Sequence record: MW233709
DNA length: 64,000 nucleotides
Reading direction: 5' to 3' (one strand)
From: Escherichia phage UPEC01
Part shown: positions 39,701-45,133 of the stretch, one piece after another
Numbering within the stretch: position 1 is the first letter of the stretch
How the letters are laid out: every line of letters starts with the position of its first letter
The notes under the pieces: model-generated
What the model was told of the DNA's origin: nothing
Seen by the model: only the letters and a program-made list of their open reading frames with translations
Database searches by the model: none
Made by a program: the position numbers and the translations under genes

Positions 39701-39913
39701 ATGTTTAAGAAACTGATTCAGAAAATTTTGGGCACAGAAATGGTTGAAGTTACTTATCGCGTAACTGACGTGAGTCCATGGGCCCGAAATATTGAACCAT
39801 ATACTAAAACAATTAAAATGCTGAAATCTGACGGTGGATTATCTATTAAAGACCGTCTACCTGGTTATGGTCATTGGGCTGATGTAGATATTATCAGTGT
39901 CAAAGATGTCTGA
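39701..39913 (+). CDS. hypothetical protein (70 aa)
   Basis: ORF with GAGG RBS. Confidence 0.4.
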   Translation: MFKKLIQKILGTEMVEVTYRVTDVSPWARNIEPYTKTIKMLKSDGGLSIKDRLPGYGHWADVDIISVKDV

Positions 39914-40364
39914 GTTAGAAATCAGAAGCAATTTCCCATGGCCATCATGTGCATTAAGTAACTTTGCTAAATGGCCTTTTGTTATGGATGGCATCCAGTT
40001 TGGAGGTCTTGAAGGCTTCCTCCAAGGGTGTAAGGTGAGAAATCATGAACAACAAAAACGTATATTTGGGATGTCCGGTCTGGCCGCACAACAAACTGGA
40101 AGAGCTTATGCTAGAGCTGCGGACCGTGGGACGCTTTTCTGGCTTGGAATTCCCTTTTCAAGATACTCTGCATCATGGAAAGAGTTGTATACAAATGCTT
40201 ATTTTGAAGCAGCGCTTCAAAACAAAGGATTCCGCGACGCATTACAAGCTACAAAGGGCAAAGTTTTAAAGCATTCGATGGCGAGCCACCTTACTGTTCA
40301 TGATACAATATTGACTGAACAAGAATTTATTGACATACTTAACCAATTGAGAGATGCATTATGA
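39897..40364 (+). CDS. NADAR-like (YbiA/DUF1768-like) protein, candidate N-glycosidase / ADP-ribose processing enzyme
   Basis: 155 aa; SNFAKWPF..DG..F...E...Q..K pattern and overall length resemble NADAR/YbiA-family domains; from memory of family motifs, not verified. Confidence 0.45.
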   Translation: MSKMSELEIRSNFPWPSCALSNFAKWPFVMDGIQFGGLEGFLQGCKVRNHEQQKRIFGMSGLAAQQTGRAYARAADRGTLFWLGIPFSRYSASWKELYTNAYFEAALQNKGFRDALQATKGKVLKHSMASHLTVHDTILTEQEFIDILNQLRDAL

Positions 40365-41185
40365 AACCCGTTATTTTAACAGATATTGATGGCGTATGTT
40401 TGTCATGGCAGTCTGGCTTGCCTTATTTCGCCCAAAAATATAATTTACCCCTGGAACATATCCTTAAGATGATTCAGGATGAAAAATTTGTGACCCCTGG
40501 TAAACTGTTCAATTGTGATGAAGAGTTGGGAGCACAGTTGATTGAGAAATATAACTGTTCAGATTTTATTCGCTATTTGTCTCCTTACGCAGATGCATTA
40601 GGGGTTATTAATAACCTCAAAGAGCAATATGATTTTGTGGCTGTTACGGCTCTGGGTGATTCCATTGATGCCCGTCTGAATCGTCAATTCAACCTGAATG
40701 CTTTGTTCCCTGGCGCATTTAAAGAAGTGATGATGTGCGGCCATACAGCCTCTAAAGAAGAGTTATTTCAGAAAGCGAAGACCAAATATAATGTCGTTTG
40801 TTATATTGATGACCTTGCACACCATTGCGACCATGCGAGTGAAATCCTTGAAGTCCCGGTTTATTGGATGGCTCGTGGCGAACGTGATGCTATTCCTAAA
40901 ACAGCTTCCAAAGTTTTTAATTGGGACGATGTTGCTGGACAGCTTAAGTTGAAACACAAAGATGAACCGGTCAAACCCGAATTCACCCCAGATGAACTCC
41001 GTAAACTGGAAGAGTTGTTTCGTGAAAGTCGACGTCTTCAACAACAAATGCAGCAAGGATGGCAACCAGGTCAACCATGGACCCCTGGATATAATCCAGC
41101 ATATCCATATCAATATGGCCAGCGCGTAGGTACTGGTATTGAATACTGGTACAATCAACCGACCGGTGGCCAAGGGGGTAATTGA
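40361..41185 (+). CDS. HAD-superfamily hydrolase-like protein with Q/P/Y/G-rich C-terminal tail
   Basis: 274 aa; N-terminal ILTDIDGV (DxDG HAD motif I), later CYIDD; C-terminal 50 aa low-complexity. Confidence 0.5.
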   Translation: MKPVILTDIDGVCLSWQSGLPYFAQKYNLPLEHILKMIQDEKFVTPGKLFNCDEELGAQLIEKYNCSDFIRYLSPYADALGVINNLKEQYDFVAVTALGDSIDARLNRQFNLNALFPGAFKEVMMCGHTASKEELFQKAKTKYNVVCYIDDLAHHCDHASEILEVPVYWMARGERDAIPKTASKVFNWDDVAGQLKLKHKDEPVKPEFTPDELRKLEELFRESRRLQQQMQQGWQPGQPWTPGYNPAYPYQYGQRVGTGIEYWYNQPTGGQGGN

Positions 41186-41463
41186 TGTTTGTCGTTCATA
41201 CTATTTCTGACCGTGGCCCAACTACCACGATGGATTACGGTCATGTTAACCAGTTTATTCGTCATGTGAATCATAATTACTCGTTTGATATTAATCCGGC
41301 TAAAGATAATCCTGTTTGGCGGGAATGTGTTGAACAAGGATTTATCTATGTTCACTTCATGACTAAAATGAAACCAGATGGTGCAACTAAATTTGTGCTC
41401 ACTTATCATAAGCGTCTGGATTTGCTTTTGGAAGACGTGGCATATAATAGAGTCAACGACTAA
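41182..41463 (+). CDS. hypothetical protein (93 aa)
   Basis: ATGA-coupled ORF. Confidence 0.45.
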   Translation: MMFVVHTISDRGPTTTMDYGHVNQFIRHVNHNYSFDINPAKDNPVWRECVEQGFIYVHFMTKMKPDGATKFVLTYHKRLDLLLEDVAYNRVND

Positions 41464-41472
41464 GAGGTGATT

Positions 41473-43014
41473 ATGATTTTAGATATTTTAAATGAAATTG
41501 CTGCAACCGATTCTACTAAAGAGAAACAAGCTATTCTGGAATCGTATTCTGATAATGAAACCCTTAAACGCGTGTATCGTTTGACATATTCCAAAGGCAT
41601 CCAGTTCTATATCAAGAAATGGCCAAAACCTGGGGCAACGTCTCAAAGCTTTGGCATGTTGAATATCGATGATATGCTTGACTTTATCGAATTCACATTA
41701 GCCGCGCGTAAATTAACAGGTAATGCTGCAATCGAGGAATTATCTGGCTATATTGCTGATGGTAAAAAAGCAGATGTTGAAGTCCTGCGCCGTGTGATGA
41801 TGCGTGACCTGGAATGTGGTGCATCCGTATCGATTGCGAATAAAGTTTGGAAAGGTTTAATTCCTGAGCAGCCACAGATGCTCGCTTCTTCTTATGATGA
41901 AGCAGGTATTGCCAAGAACATTAAGTTCCCGGCCTTTGCACAATTGAAAGCCGATGGCGCCAGGTGTTTTGCAGAAGTTCGTGGCGATGAGTTGGATGAT
42001 GTTCGATTGCTATCCCGAGCTGGTAACGAATACCTTAAGCTTGACCTCCTTAAAAAGGAATTGATTGAAGCTACCCGTGAAGCGCGTGAGAGACATCCTG
42101 AGGGCGTTTTAATTGATGGCGAGTTAGTATACCATGAACAGAAAGTAGCTCCCCAGAATGACGGTTTGGGCTTCCTTTTTGACGATATGCCTGAGCTTAG
42201 CAAAGCAAAAGAATTTGCAGAATTTGCAGAATCAAGAACCTTTTCAAATGGGCTGGCAAACAAATCATTGAAAGGAACTATTTCTGCAACAGAAGCTTCT
42301 TGCATGAAATTTCAGGTTTGGGATTATGTTCCACTGATTGAAGTCTATTCTGATGTTAAGATTCTCAATCCATTGAAATATGATGTGCGTTTTTCTGTTC
42401 TGGAAAAAATGATTGCAGATAACGTGGTGCTGCATGGTTTCGACCGCATGATTCTGATTGAAAACCATGTTGTTAACAATCTCGATGAAGCGAAGGTTAT
42501 CTATAAGAAATATGTGGATGAAGGCCTTGAAGGTATTATCCTTAAGAACATGGCATCGATTTGGGAAAACAAGCGCTCAAAGAACTTGTACAAGTTCAAA
42601 GAAGTAATTGACATTGCAATGGAAATCATTGGATATTACGAGCACGATAAAGACCCGAATAAGATTGGCGGTGTTGTGCTTCGTTCTTCTTGTGGTAAGA
42701 TTACAAATAACTGTGGTTCTGGCTTTAAAGACACAACTCAAGTTAAAGATAAGAAAACCAAAAAATGGGTTACTATTCCGATTGAGGAGCGTCATGAAAT
42801 GGACCGTGAAGCCTTGATGGTTAAAGCTCGTAAAGGTGAATTGGTTGGAATGATTGCCGACTGTGAATGTAATGGTTGGTTGACTTCCGAGACTCGTAAA
42901 GATAATACGGTTGCATTGTTCCTGCCGATTATCAAAGGGTTCCGTTTCGATAAAGACCATGCAGACACATTCGAAGATGTATTTGGCGACTGGGCAAAGA
43001 CCGGGTTAAAATAA
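41473..43014 (+). CDS. 30: ATP-dependent DNA ligase gp30
   Basis: ATG at 41473 after AAGAGG RBS; KADGAR adenylation motif and long stretches identical to T4 ligase. Confidence 0.95.
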   Translation: MILDILNEIAATDSTKEKQAILESYSDNETLKRVYRLTYSKGIQFYIKKWPKPGATSQSFGMLNIDDMLDFIEFTLAARKLTGNAAIEELSGYIADGKKADVEVLRRVMMRDLECGASVSIANKVWKGLIPEQPQMLASSYDEAGIAKNIKFPAFAQLKADGARCFAEVRGDELDDVRLLSRAGNEYLKLDLLKKELIEATREARERHPEGVLIDGELVYHEQKVAPQNDGLGFLFDDMPELSKAKEFAEFAESRTFSNGLANKSLKGTISATEASCMKFQVWDYVPLIEVYSDVKILNPLKYDVRFSVLEKMIADNVVLHGFDRMILIENHVVNNLDEAKVIYKKYVDEGLEGIILKNMASIWENKRSKNLYKFKEVIDIAMEIIGYYEHDKDPNKIGGVVLRSSCGKITNNCGSGFKDTTQVKDKKTKKWVTIPIEERHEMDREALMVKARKGELVGMIADCECNGWLTSETRKDNTVALFLPIIKGFRFDKDHADTFEDVFGDWAKTGLK

Positions 43015-43017
43015 CAA

Positions 43018-43038
43018 AAGGGCTTCGGCCCTTTTTTA
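43018..43038 (+). terminator. intrinsic terminator after gene 30
   Basis: AAGGGC-TTCG-GCCCTT plus T-run. Confidence 0.7.
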
Positions 43039-43039
43039 G

Positions 43040-43047
43040 TATAAATA
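43040..43047 (+). promoter_or_regulatory. late promoter for alt
   Basis: TATAAATA 26 nt upstream of alt start; consistent with Alt being a virion protein. Confidence 0.6.
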
Positions 43048-43072
43048 CATCATATTTTATAAGGAACCTATT

Positions 43073-45133
43073 ATGTCTGAACAATTAAATGAACTCTTTG
43101 ACAAATATATCGAAGCCTTCGGTTATCCTGTCATTAATATGAACCCAAAATACAAGGTCCCACAGGTTTGGCAATTCGGTGTTCCTGGGACAAATTCTCT
43201 TATGGCTCGTTTGATGCAATTCACGGGCAAAGAAACGGTTAAACAATATAAACGCGGTGATGCGATTGCCGAGGTATTTCTGTTATCCGGGACTTCACAT
43301 GGCCATGCTATTCCTCTGAAGGGTGGTCTAGGTGAAAAACCTCTTGACGCGATTAACCTGATTTTTGTTACAGTCTGGGAAAGCATTAAACTAGGTAAAC
43401 CTGATGTAGTCTTGTTCCGTTTCCCATCCAAAAAGATGAAAGGACAAGACCAAGCTGTTATTCGTATTATGAATCGACTGATTCAAATGAAAACCAGCGG
43501 ACGTTATCATGTTCTTCCGAATGCTTCTGGCCTCGGTAAAAAGAACGCTTATGTAATTATGTACAAAAAGGGTGTTGACCTGCTTTCGGTTGATGGTATG
43601 CCACCAGTCCCTGAGAAATATCAAAAAGTTGAAACTAAAGTTGGCGATGTATTCACCAATAAAGATACAGGCGCGCAAGTCTCCAAACAAGAAATCGCAG
43701 CCGAAGTTCTGATTAACGCAGCAAACAAAAAGACCGACGCAGCTGTTGCCCAGAAAACTAAAATCAGTCGCCGAGCTATTGCACAAGCCCAGTACGCACC
43801 AAGTGATTCCGTGCCAGAAGGTTGGGACGAAATTGATGCAGAAGCTGCTAAGTTTAGTCGACCGGCTACGGCAGAACTTATCGATGATTATGAAGAACTG
43901 GAAATTTTTGTTCGACCTTCCGAAACGAATACTATGGCTCGTATGCGCGCCGCGGATACGGCTATGCGAGCAAATGGTGTTTGGAAAGAAGAAATTCGTG
44001 TTGAAGACTCTGACCCAATTTTTAACCGTATGCATCGTGAACTTAAACGTGCCCCAGTTGGTAGCATGAAGCAGATGCAGATTTTTGCCGAATCATGCGC
44101 AGAGATTCTTAACCTTCGCAAAGCCGCATTTATCGAAAGAAAAATGAATGATGCTCCTCCTAACCTGGATGCAGCCACTTATGCAGCCTCGCTCTGGGAA
44201 AAAGAATACACAAGCGCCATTCGTGTTGCAGTTAAAGACTTTGCCGAAGAAGCATCAGAAAATACTCTTAATTTCACAGCAGGGTATACTGACAACCGTT
44301 TCCATTATGGCCAGCGAGAAGCAATTGCAGATTATTGTGGAGCAAACTATGCCGATATTAATAATTATTTGATGGGCAAATATTATGAAGAAGAAGCTGA
44401 ATTCCTAAATCTAGACAGAGTTGTCGAAACAATTAAGGAATTGGATTCGGCCTTTGAAATTGGACATAAGTTGCCGCCTAATACAACTCTTTGGCGTGGT
44501 CAATATTTAAATGTTCCTACATTTGATAAAATTAAGCAATCGAAATTATTTTATTTCAGGAACTATGTATCAACGTCGTTTAAACCGATTATCTTTGGTG
44601 GTTGGGTGGCGAACGTTGCTATGGCTGCAGTTCATCAGGACTATCGTGATGGGACATCTTTCCAGGCTGATGACGAAATTGTTTTACCAGATATGCCGGA
44701 TGCACGCCGCGACCACGTAATGATGCATGTTGGTTGGAAAATTTCTGGGGCGGACTTAATTAACGTAATTGTTCCTGGGGAATTGTCAAGCAACCCGTCC
44801 GAGCAGGAAGTTATTCTTCCTCGTGGGACTGTAGTTAAGATTACCAAAATTACTGATGCTTCGTATCAAGGAAACGCGAACGTCAAAATGCTGGAAGCTG
44901 ATATCCAGACTACGGACCAACTGGATGAAAATGCAGTTATCTATGATGGCGATGTGTTGATGGAAACTGGTGAGCTTGTCGTTTATCAGGGCGAGGAAAC
45001 AGAAGAGCCAGTAGAATCTGTTGACTTTGCATCGTTTGCATCCTCTGGTGTAACGAAGAAAGTCAATCAAGGTCTTGGTATTCTTGCTAGTTGTATTAAT
45101 TTGGAAGCTATTCCTCCTAAATTCCTTTCGTAG
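43073..45133 (+). CDS. alt: ADP-ribosyltransferase Alt (virion-injected)
   Basis: 686 aa; ART catalytic triad elements LWRGQ (Arg), YVSTSF (STS), EQEVILP (Glu); N-terminal L-x-E prohead-protease-type site; late promoter upstream; position between 30 and 54. Confidence 0.75.
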   Translation: MSEQLNELFDKYIEAFGYPVINMNPKYKVPQVWQFGVPGTNSLMARLMQFTGKETVKQYKRGDAIAEVFLLSGTSHGHAIPLKGGLGEKPLDAINLIFVTVWESIKLGKPDVVLFRFPSKKMKGQDQAVIRIMNRLIQMKTSGRYHVLPNASGLGKKNAYVIMYKKGVDLLSVDGMPPVPEKYQKVETKVGDVFTNKDTGAQVSKQEIAAEVLINAANKKTDAAVAQKTKISRRAIAQAQYAPSDSVPEGWDEIDAEAAKFSRPATAELIDDYEELEIFVRPSETNTMARMRAADTAMRANGVWKEEIRVEDSDPIFNRMHRELKRAPVGSMKQMQIFAESCAEILNLRKAAFIERKMNDAPPNLDAATYAASLWEKEYTSAIRVAVKDFAEEASENTLNFTAGYTDNRFHYGQREAIADYCGANYADINNYLMGKYYEEEAEFLNLDRVVETIKELDSAFEIGHKLPPNTTLWRGQYLNVPTFDKIKQSKLFYFRNYVSTSFKPIIFGGWVANVAMAAVHQDYRDGTSFQADDEIVLPDMPDARRDHVMMHVGWKISGADLINVIVPGELSSNPSEQEVILPRGTVVKITKITDASYQGNANVKMLEADIQTTDQLDENAVIYDGDVLMETGELVVYQGEETEEPVESVDFASFASSGVTKKVNQGLGILASCINLEAIPPKFLS

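Follow-up and report, generated by a model that had tools for sequence, protein, structure and literature searches.

Gene content and order of the locus

The window analysed here is a 64,000-nucleotide stretch of Escherichia phage UPEC01 (sequence record MW233709), a T4-like phage (Gaprivervirus) that is ~95-97% identical to VR20 and TH41. It contains the gene run 30.4-30.3-30.2-30.1-ligase-alt, which follows the conserved T4-type order and comprises the following features.

39701..39913, + strand: homologue of T4 gene 30.4, 70 aa (phrog_2042, E 2e-34; annotated in VR20 as 'similar to T4 gp30.4')
39906..40364, + strand: adfN, the orthologue of T4 gene 30.3, 152 aa (PF08010, 215.9 bits; 86% identity to T4 gp30.3)
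40011-40013, 40032-40034 and 40272-40274, + strand: predicted catalytic codons of adfN for E36, K43 and H123
40045..40269, + strand: internal +1-frame ORF equivalent to T4 30.3', 74 aa (62% identity to T4 30.3')
40361..40960, + strand: gp30.2 catalytic core, residues 1-200, a predicted HAD phosphatase with a C1 helical cap
40382-40390 and 40808-40813: gp30.2 HAD motifs I (D8/D10) and IV (D150-D151), with T96 as motif II and K132 as motif III between them
40961..41185, + strand: gp30.2 C-terminal extension, a helix (residues 210-233) and then a disordered Q/G/P/Y-rich tail
41185..41463, + strand: gp30.1 homologue (DUF3045; Pfam PF11243, E 6e-18)
41473..43014, + strand: ATP-dependent DNA ligase, gp30 (DNA_ligase_A_M, E 3e-28; phrog_114, E 4e-156)
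43016..43047, + strand: terminator-like hairpin (43016-43037) and late-promoter motif (43040-43047)
43073..45133, + strand: alt, the packaged Alt ADP-ribosyltransferase (Pfam ADPrib_exo_Tox, PF03496, E 3e-19; PHROG Alt family, phrog_802, E 3e-224)

The first open reading frame of the adfN-gp30.2 pair occupies 39897-40364 on the + strand and specifies 155 aa if begun at a GTG codon. The true start of adfN is most likely the ATG at 39906, which predicts a protein of 152 aa beginning MSELEIRSNF and is preferred because this length and N-terminus agree with T4 gp30.3 and with the VR20 annotation. The genes of the cluster are tightly packed: this ATG and the gene 30.4 stop codon overlap by 8 nt (ATGTCTGA), adfN and gp30.2 overlap in the sequence ATGA (ATG 40361-40363, TGA 40362-40364), and the gp30.1 ATG overlaps the gp30.2 stop codon in the sequence TGATG. 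The second open reading frame (40361-41185, + strand) encodes 274 aa and corresponds to T4 gp30.2, while the ligase frame is open from a GTG at 41467 and the T4 N-terminus is matched by the ATG at 41473. Before alt lie the hairpin AAAAGGGC-TTCG-GCCCTTTTTT and then TATAAATA, which we take to be the T4 late-promoter consensus. A scan for sigma-70-type promoters returned 25 matches, with 20.5 expected from a shuffled background, and thus no excess. The elements on which an earlier sequence-only reading of this DNA was built are all present, namely both open reading frames, their translational overlap, an SNFAKWPF-type motif in the adfN product (ALSNFAKWPFVMDGIQFGGLEGF) and, 1.9 kb downstream, an alt gene whose product has the ADP-ribosyltransferase signature R475 / S500-T-S / E577-Q-E.

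The internal +1-frame ORF is annotated as 30.3' in both T4 and VR20. Among close T-even relatives this frame usually has 76 open codons and in one case 61, whereas distant gp30.3 genes mostly have a shorter one; the pattern offers no strong evidence of protein coding.

AdfN is a NADAR of the phage clade

The 152-aa protein belongs to the gp30.3/AdfN clade of the NADAR superfamily. Its alignment with T4 gp30.3 spans all 152 residues with 0 gaps, and it matches the Pfam model Phage_30_3 (PF08010) from profile positions 2 to 138 of 138, far above the cut-off of 36 bits (E 2e-64), as well as phrog_420 (E 4e-78). The general NADAR model PF08719 gave no direct match to this protein at E <= 1, and nothing significant was found among the NCBIfam and PADLOC models (TIGR02464, E 0.099), so the link to NADARs had to be drawn from the clade-specific HMM, the family profile and structure. 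Several homologues at ~40% identity match both PF08010 and PF08719, and the gp30.3 family profile matches YbiA (E 0.005). When an AF2 model of AdfN (pLDDT 94.4, pTM 0.88) was compared with the PDB by Foldseek, the top three matches were YbiA (2b3w) and the NADARs 8bau and 8bat, all with a probability of at least 0.99; the next PDB match after these three solved NADARs had a probability of 0.05. The proposal that the 155-aa frame encodes a NADAR/YbiA-like protein was therefore right, and the structural resemblance to YbiA and other NADARs that it foresaw is borne out, although at the level of HMMs the family is reached through Phage_30_3 and not directly through PF08719.

The residues expected for catalysis are also retained. 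Across 35 gp30.3 genes, E36, R86 and H123 show little or no variation and position 43 is K or R; the significance of E36, K43 and the last-strand His in NADARs has been described (PMC11825919; PMC11125620). In the AdfN model, H123 directly follows the strand formed by residues 120-122, and the C-terminal helix is intact, spanning residues 138-151, with the T4 alignment running through residue 152.

Comparison with characterized NADARs places the UPEC01 protein closest to T4 AdfN, with which it shares E36, K43, H123, the C-terminal helix, the internal 30.3' ORF and the neighbouring genes 30.4 (upstream) and 30.2 (downstream), with start and stop codons that overlap in the same way. The two differ by 22 substitutions, mostly conservative, and derive from a Tequatrovirus (T4) and a Gaprivervirus (UPEC01). 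The NADAR of DarG1 antitoxins (e.g. Geobacter lovleyi, PDB 8bat) has the same fold (Foldseek probability 0.99) and, by analogy with T4 AdfN, would share the chemistry of removing ADP-ribose from DNA guanine, but it is only ~16% identical, has an Asp in the last strand where UPEC01 AdfN has His, and performs a function in which the T4 orthologue is unable to replace it in uninfected cells. Escherichia coli YbiA (2b3w), of the riboflavin-intermediate N-glycosidase type, is similar in size, matches AdfN best in structure (TM 0.62-0.68) and has the SNF...DG...E..Q..K motif in common with it, whereas its identity is 18%, its genomic context is different and its last strand contains Glu instead of His. 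No DarT toxin gene lies beside adfN, which is flanked by gp30.4 and gp30.2, and PADLOC models found no match there; to judge from this gene neighbourhood, adfN is an orphan antitoxin-like gene and not a toxin-antitoxin system.

AdfN and counter-defence against DarTG1

The function of this clade has been established with the T4 protein. T4 gp30.3 was renamed AdfN (anti-DarT factor NADAR) in 2025 and was described as a guanine-ADP-ribose DNA glycohydrolase that is both necessary and sufficient against DarTG1; a T4 adfN deletion forms no plaques on DarTG1 and expression of adfN rescues RB69 (Johannesman et al., Nat Commun; PMC11825919). The purified T4 protein strips ADP-ribose from DNA, the E36A and K43A variants are impaired, and the RB69 allele, which has lost the last helix, is defective and leaves its phage DarTG1-sensitive (PMC11825919). 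In vitro, guanosine-ADP-ribose is cleaved and thymidine-ADP-ribose is not (PMC11125620). In agreement with these results, gene 30.3 had a log2FC of -7.25 when T4 was grown on DarTG1 (HIDEN-SEQ preprint). T4 AdfN neither neutralizes DarT1 in uninfected cells nor more than barely rescues T5 and Bas25, which points to the need for a further factor of T-even infection for its action in vivo.

For UPEC01, we infer the activity of AdfN and the DarTG1 phenotype from the T4 orthologue, while its fold, catalytic residues and orthology were computed here. In the proposed pathway, host DarTG1 would free DarT1 during infection, and the freed toxin would ADP-ribosylate guanines of the phage DNA and block replication. 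AdfN would then cut the N-glycosidic bond between guanine and ADP-ribose by means of E36, K43 and H123, restoring the template so that the phage could replicate; it would thereby imitate DarG1, the antitoxin, but would not bind the toxin. The suggestion in the sequence-only reading that such a protein reverses guanine ADP-ribosylation by DarT and serves in counter-defence agrees with the experimental findings on T4 AdfN, the 86%-identical orthologue (PMC11825919; HIDEN-SEQ preprint). It was also already known: the NADAR assignment has been published (PMC11125620; PMC11825919), the activity was reported in 2024, followed in 2025 by the role in counter-defence.

It has been suggested that phage NADARs act on soluble ADP-ribose derivatives (Iyer et al., 2022), and UPEC01 AdfN could in principle prefer soluble substrates to DNA, for example riboflavin-pathway N-glycosides or small immune signals derived from ADP-ribose. 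YbiA as its best structural match (E 2.4e-5) and the weak match to TIGR02464, a riboflavin N-glycosidase model, would fit this proposal. However, its last-strand residue is His123, as is typical of the phage clade, and not the Glu of YbiA-type enzymes, and T4 AdfN removes ADP-ribose from DNA in vitro while the genetics are DarTG1-specific, so a mainly soluble substrate is very unlikely. AdfN illustrates clearly how a phage can take over an enzyme of the antitoxin type and use it to reverse a DNA modification that a host defence inflicts. By analogy with T4, the intact adfN predicts that UPEC01 is resistant to DarTG1-carrying E. coli, a property that would be useful in choosing therapeutic phages.

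gp30.2 is a predicted HAD phosphatase

The HAD-like character proposed for the 274-aa protein is upheld by both its motifs and its predicted structure. DIDGV forms residues 8-12, and among 44 gp30.2 homologues no substitution occurs at D8, D10, K132, D150 or D151, and T96 is retained in at least 90%. The model has a Rossmann-like HAD core (pLDDT > 94) and a C1 helical cap (residues 16-75). The expected match to HAD families did not emerge from direct searches, as none of the Pfam HAD and NT5C models reaches threshold on gp30.2 itself (HAD_2, 13 bits vs 23.8), but it did emerge through intermediate sequences. NT5C (PF06941) matched 2 of the 44 close homologues (best E 0.003); among the more distant members of the 1298 relatives found by a gp30.2 profile search, 40 of 85 (E 1e-19 to 1e-30) match NT5C with a best E of 4e-10, and in a separate scan of 10 relatives two exceeded its threshold, with 33.8 and 34.6 bits vs 24.8. 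For the same link, hhalign gave a probability of 100%. Because gp30.2 itself has no NT5C match, it is regarded as a related clade and is not filed as a member of that family.

NT5C nucleotidases are also the best Foldseek match of gp30.2. The cdN/mdN enzymes (2jao, 2i7d, 1q92) share the HAD core with C1 cap and a DxDGV motif I, and W16 of gp30.2 aligns with a Phe of cdN, both being aromatic. They differ from gp30.2 in sequence (16-18% identity) and do not have its C-terminal helix and hypervariable low-complexity tail. The unusual Q/P/Y/G-rich character noted earlier for this tail is evident in the last 50 residues (11 Q, 10 G, 6 P and 6 Y), which are predicted to be disordered (pLDDT 46-53 for residues 240-274) and end in the motif GTGIEYWYNQPT. 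About half of the homologues have no tail; the tails of the others belong to several unrelated classes, one subset having a GTGIEY..QPT motif in common.

By these features, gp30.2 would be a Mg-dependent HAD phosphatase in which D8 acts as nucleophile and D10 as general acid/base, with T96, K132 and D150-D151 completing the active site. Its substrate, as we infer it, is most likely a small nucleotide-type molecule. A literature search for 'gp30.2' found no paper, and in T4 gene 30.2 is non-essential, with transposon insertions at 72 of 72 sites.

Relationships among the neighbouring genes

The sequence-only reading had tentatively joined the NADAR, the HAD protein and Alt in one ADP-ribosylation-editing or counter-defence module. 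In its fullest form, the HAD enzyme would act on a compound that the NADAR consumes or makes, or edit ADP-ribosylation made by Alt, and both proteins would be required. Several observations are compatible with such a module: the ATGA overlap of adfN and gp30.2, the two genes abutting in 18 of 69 gp30.2 loci and lying within 1.2 kb of each other in 33, the need of T4 AdfN for an extra T-even factor for full activity, and the use of both NADARs and HAD phosphatases in riboflavin-intermediate metabolism described in the literature. Against it, gp30.3 is absent from the surroundings of 36 of the 69 loci, whereas the ligase gene is present at 68, and the numbers of the two genes in phage EcS1, gp227 and gp293, place them far apart. 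ADP-ribose freed by a NADAR would provide no phosphomonoester substrate for the phosphatase. T4 Alt modifies protein arginine, whereas NADARs target guanine-ADP-ribose in DNA, and the terminator hairpin and late-promoter motif separate alt from the early cluster. On DarTG1, T4 insertions in 30.2 (71 sites) had a log2FC of -0.12 (p 0.61), with 0.00 on DarTG2, and those in alt had a log2FC of -0.01 as against -7.25 for 30.3; gp30.2 is thus dispensable for DarTG1 counter-defence in T4. With both locus co-occurrence and the T4 transposon tables against it, a functional NADAR/HAD/Alt module was rejected as extremely improbable, so that of the original proposal the counter-defence role of adfN, anchored in its T4 orthologue, stands and the joint module does not. 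We consider it highly probable that the region instead comprises two independent early genes, an adfN orthologue and an NT5C-related HAD phosphatase, gp30.2.

In genome organization, the conserved partner of gp30.2 is the ligase gene and not adfN, as ligase lies directly downstream in 68 of the 69 related loci. This arrangement, with gp30.2 directly 5' of ligase on the same strand even in very divergent T4-like phages, raises the possibility that gp30.2 is a DNA-end 3'-phosphatase that readies nicks for ligase, which would make it an analogue of the HAD phosphatase domain in T4 polynucleotide kinase. A weak match to a polynucleotide-kinase PHROG (phrog_415, E 0.002), one distant relative that matches Pfam HAD_PNKP and one homologue (P0021) fused to a gp30.1 domain point in the same direction. 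A C1 cap in HAD enzymes closes over small substrates, however, and polynucleotide phosphatases are capless, whereas the gp30.2 model has the full helical cap. In addition, the best sequence-level relatives are NT5C proteins (40/85) rather than PNKP (1/85), and inheritance alone can explain a kept gene order in T4-like genomes. A role at DNA ends is therefore unlikely, though it is the alternative to which we give most weight.

For adfN, a functional partner other than the HAD gene might be sought upstream, in the 70-aa product of gene 30.4 (39701-39913). Exactly two T4 genes were conditionally essential on DarTG1 in the HIDEN-SEQ data, 30.3 and 30.4, with 30.4 insertions depleted at a log2FC of -1.79 (padj 0.014); the preprint makes no comment on 30.4. 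Together with the overlap of the 30.4 stop and the adfN start and the dependence of AdfN on a T-even factor, this depletion suggests that gp30.4 could be the factor that AdfN needs in vivo. The depletion is probably a polar or translational-coupling effect of insertions that lower adfN expression, and a partnership with gp30.4 is quite improbable. Among 25 gp30.4 homologues, 14 adjoin gp30.3 and 11 do not.

The gene pair and its setting

Reading of the sequence alone had suggested that a NADAR-like gene and a HAD-like gene ahead of DNA ligase might form, together with alt, a counter-defence or ADP-ribosylation-editing module. Both of the ORFs it claimed were found in place, along with the motifs it quoted (SNFAKWPF..DG and DIDGV), the Q/P/Y/G-rich tail of the 274-aa product (of its final 50 residues, 11 are Q, 10 are G, and P and Y account for 6 each), and the ART signature of alt (R475, S500-T-S and E577-Q-E). 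The features discussed here are as follows.

39701-39913, + strand: homologue of T4 gene 30.4, overlapping the adfN start
39906-40364, + strand: adfN (T4 gene 30.3)
40045-40269, + strand: internal +1-frame ORF in adfN, equivalent to T4 30.3' (74 aa, 62% identity)
40361-41185, + strand: gene 30.2
40961-41185, + strand: gp30.2 C-terminal extension, residues 201-274, hypervariable among phages
43016-43037: terminator-like GC-rich hairpin with a T-run, AAAAGGGC-TTCG-GCCCTTTTTT, in the ligase-alt spacer (43015-43072)
43040-43047: TATAAATA, 3' of the hairpin

The 3.6 kb around the pair shares 95-97% identity with Escherichia phages TH41, TH44, DK-13 and vB_EcoM_VR20, the last of which is classified in the Straboviridae, Tevenvirinae, genus Gaprivervirus. 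The + strand genes run in T4 order (30.6, 30.5, 30.4, 30.3 with internal ORF 30.3', 30.2, 30.1, 30 encoding DNA ligase, and alt). The small gene alt.1, which occupies the ligase-alt position in T4, is absent here. The first ORF had been listed as 155 aa from a GTG at 39897; the likely start of adfN is the ATG at 39906, because the resulting 152-aa protein (N-terminus MSELEIRSNF) agrees in length and N-terminus with T4 gp30.3 and the VR20 annotation. This ATG overlaps the upstream gene's stop as ATGTCTGA, and further stop/start overlaps join 30.3 to 30.2 (ATGA) and 30.2 to 30.1 (TGATG).

AdfN, a NADAR protein with a T4 orthologue of established function

The 152-aa protein aligns ungapped with T4 gp30.3 at 86% identity, and Pfam PF08010 (Phage_30_3) matches it across the whole model (E 2e-64). 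Pfam PF08719 gave no match at E <= 1, PADLOC models gave none, and in NCBIfam TIGR02464 appeared at E 0.099, with no general NADAR model matching directly. A 58-sequence family profile picked up E. coli YbiA at E 0.005, in an alignment that takes in the SNF...DG...E..Q..K region, and PF08010 and PF08719 occur together in several homologues at ~40% identity. The top three PDB matches of the AlphaFold2 model (pLDDT 94.4, pTM 0.88), all at probability >= 0.99, were YbiA (2b3w), a Phytophthora NADAR-ADPr complex (8bau) and the Geobacter lovleyi DarG1-type NADAR (8bat); all others had probability <= 0.07. The family profile, the double-domain homologues and the modelled structure thus place the protein in the NADAR superfamily, and sequence and model together identify it as AdfN.

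The domain call of the sequence-only reading was therefore right, as the PF08010 and YbiA profile matches and the model indicate, and so was its counter-defence idea, which has been published for the T4 orthologue (PMC11825919). This central idea is established knowledge because the NADAR assignment, activity and counter-defence role of gp30.3 are already in the literature, the assignment predating this work; the main element belongs to an already characterised gene family. An earlier bioinformatic study, as it is cited in PMC11825919, called T4 gene 30.3 a NADAR. In vitro, T4 gp30.3 removed ADP-ribose from guanosine, not thymidine, and it did not neutralise DarT1 in uninfected cells (Toxins 2024, PMC11125620). 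DarTG1 resistance of T2 and T4 was mapped to gene 30.3, renamed adfN, which is necessary and sufficient for counter-defence in T-even phages; AdfN glycohydrolase activity was demonstrated on DarT1-modified DNA, and full activity requires T-even infection (Johannesman et al. 2025, PMC11825919). In a T4 transposon-insertion screen (HIDEN-SEQ, preprint), insertions in 30.3 were lost on DarTG1 hosts. Iyer et al. (2022) had put forward soluble ADPr derivatives as what phage NADARs act on.

Residues E36, K43 and H123, which vary little or not at all within the family, are present in the window's AdfN; E36 and K43 mutants of T4 AdfN are impaired in function (PMC11825919), and the last-strand histidine (H123) is a mark of the phage NADAR clade (PMC11125620). 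The C-terminal helix, whose loss by frameshift renders phage RB69 DarTG1-sensitive (PMC11825919), is intact in the alignment to T4 and in the model. An adfN allele on an RB69-like phage contig (locus L012, 7636-8001) is missing the first ~30 residues, the SNF motif among them, and several 126-aa metagenome proteins (P0120-P0122) resemble it. By analogy with the C-terminal truncation of RB69, phages with such N-terminally shortened alleles may be DarTG1-sensitive.

gp30.2, alt and the proposed module

The 274-aa protein is 66% identical to T4 gp30.2, with the first ~190 residues highly conserved and the tail diverged; it is assigned to phrog_420, annotated "unknown function", and scores 13 bits against Pfam HAD_2, below threshold. 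Its HAD assignment in the sequence-only reading holds, since the four HAD motifs (D8 and D10 in DxDG, T96, K132, D150-D151) are conserved in 44 homologues and the AlphaFold model has a HAD core (pLDDT > 94) with a helical C1 cap; a further helix spans residues 210-233, and the tail is disordered from ~residue 236 on. In the HAD superfamily a DxD motif indicates a phosphatase, not a dehalogenase, and by sequence and model the protein is assigned as gp30.2, a HAD phosphatase. Searching 1.8 billion representatives with a profile yielded 1298 relatives; Pfam NT5C was matched by 40 of 85 distant relatives, more than any other family, its gathering score was exceeded by 2 of 10 representatives in a separate scan, and the gp30.2 and NT5C alignments gave an hhalign probability of 100%. 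The enzyme is thus probably an NT5C-related phosphatase, and its inferred substrate a nucleotide-like small molecule. Some distant relatives lie inside longer multidomain proteins (P0292, 591 aa; P0342, 660 aa; P0238, 430 aa; P0276, 365 aa), the remaining parts of which had no Pfam match.

A joint NADAR/HAD/Alt module is not supported. Among 69 IMG/VR loci encoding a gp30.2 homologue, ligase lies downstream on the same strand in 68 (gap <= ~500 nt in 67), and gp30.3 lies within 1.2 kb upstream in only 33, abutting or overlapping gp30.2 in 18 of these; in phage EcS1 the two genes are numbered gp227 and gp293. In the T4 screen, DarTG1 gave log2FC -7.25 for 30.3 (padj 0), -0.12 for 30.2 (p 0.61, 71 sites) and -0.01 for both 30.1 and alt, and all four were ~0 on DarTG2; on K-12, T4 can dispense with 30.2. 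The two genes sit together because T4 early genes are closely packed, and they are no functional unit. A link to Alt is likewise not supported, given the alt value and the hairpin and late-promoter motif between ligase and alt. TATAAATA matches the T4 late-promoter consensus; because it and the hairpin lie 5' of alt, and Alt is a packaged virion protein, alt is probably a separate late transcription unit.

Gene 30.4, the internal ORF and the gp30.2 tail

The DarTG1 sheet of the screen, by its header count and as a whole, holds exactly two significant genes, 30.3 and 30.4 (log2FC -1.79, padj 0.014 for the latter); 30.4 goes unmentioned in the text of the preprint. The likeliest explanation is a local effect, polar or through coupling, on adfN expression, and the preprint describes polar effects as generally weak in these data. 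Since AdfN needs a factor from T-even infection, gp30.4 may instead be a candidate for that factor; 14 of the 25 gp30.4 homologues found adjoin gp30.3 and 11 do not, so co-occurrence does not decide a partner role.

Most close T-even relatives keep the 30.3' frame open over 76 codons. In distant gp30.3 genes the open stretch is usually shorter, so evidence that it is coding is weak. About half of gp30.2 homologues have no tail (roughly 200-220 aa), and the tails of the others belong to several classes, unrelated to one another, with abundant P, W, Y and N. A GTGIEY(L/W)..(Q/R)PT motif is common to this phage, T4 and one further subset. In P0021, a 302-aa homologue on a 1378-nt metagenome contig, the gp30.1 domain (DUF3045, PF11243) replaces the tail; either the two neighbouring genes are naturally fused there, or the protein is an artefact of assembly or of a frameshift.
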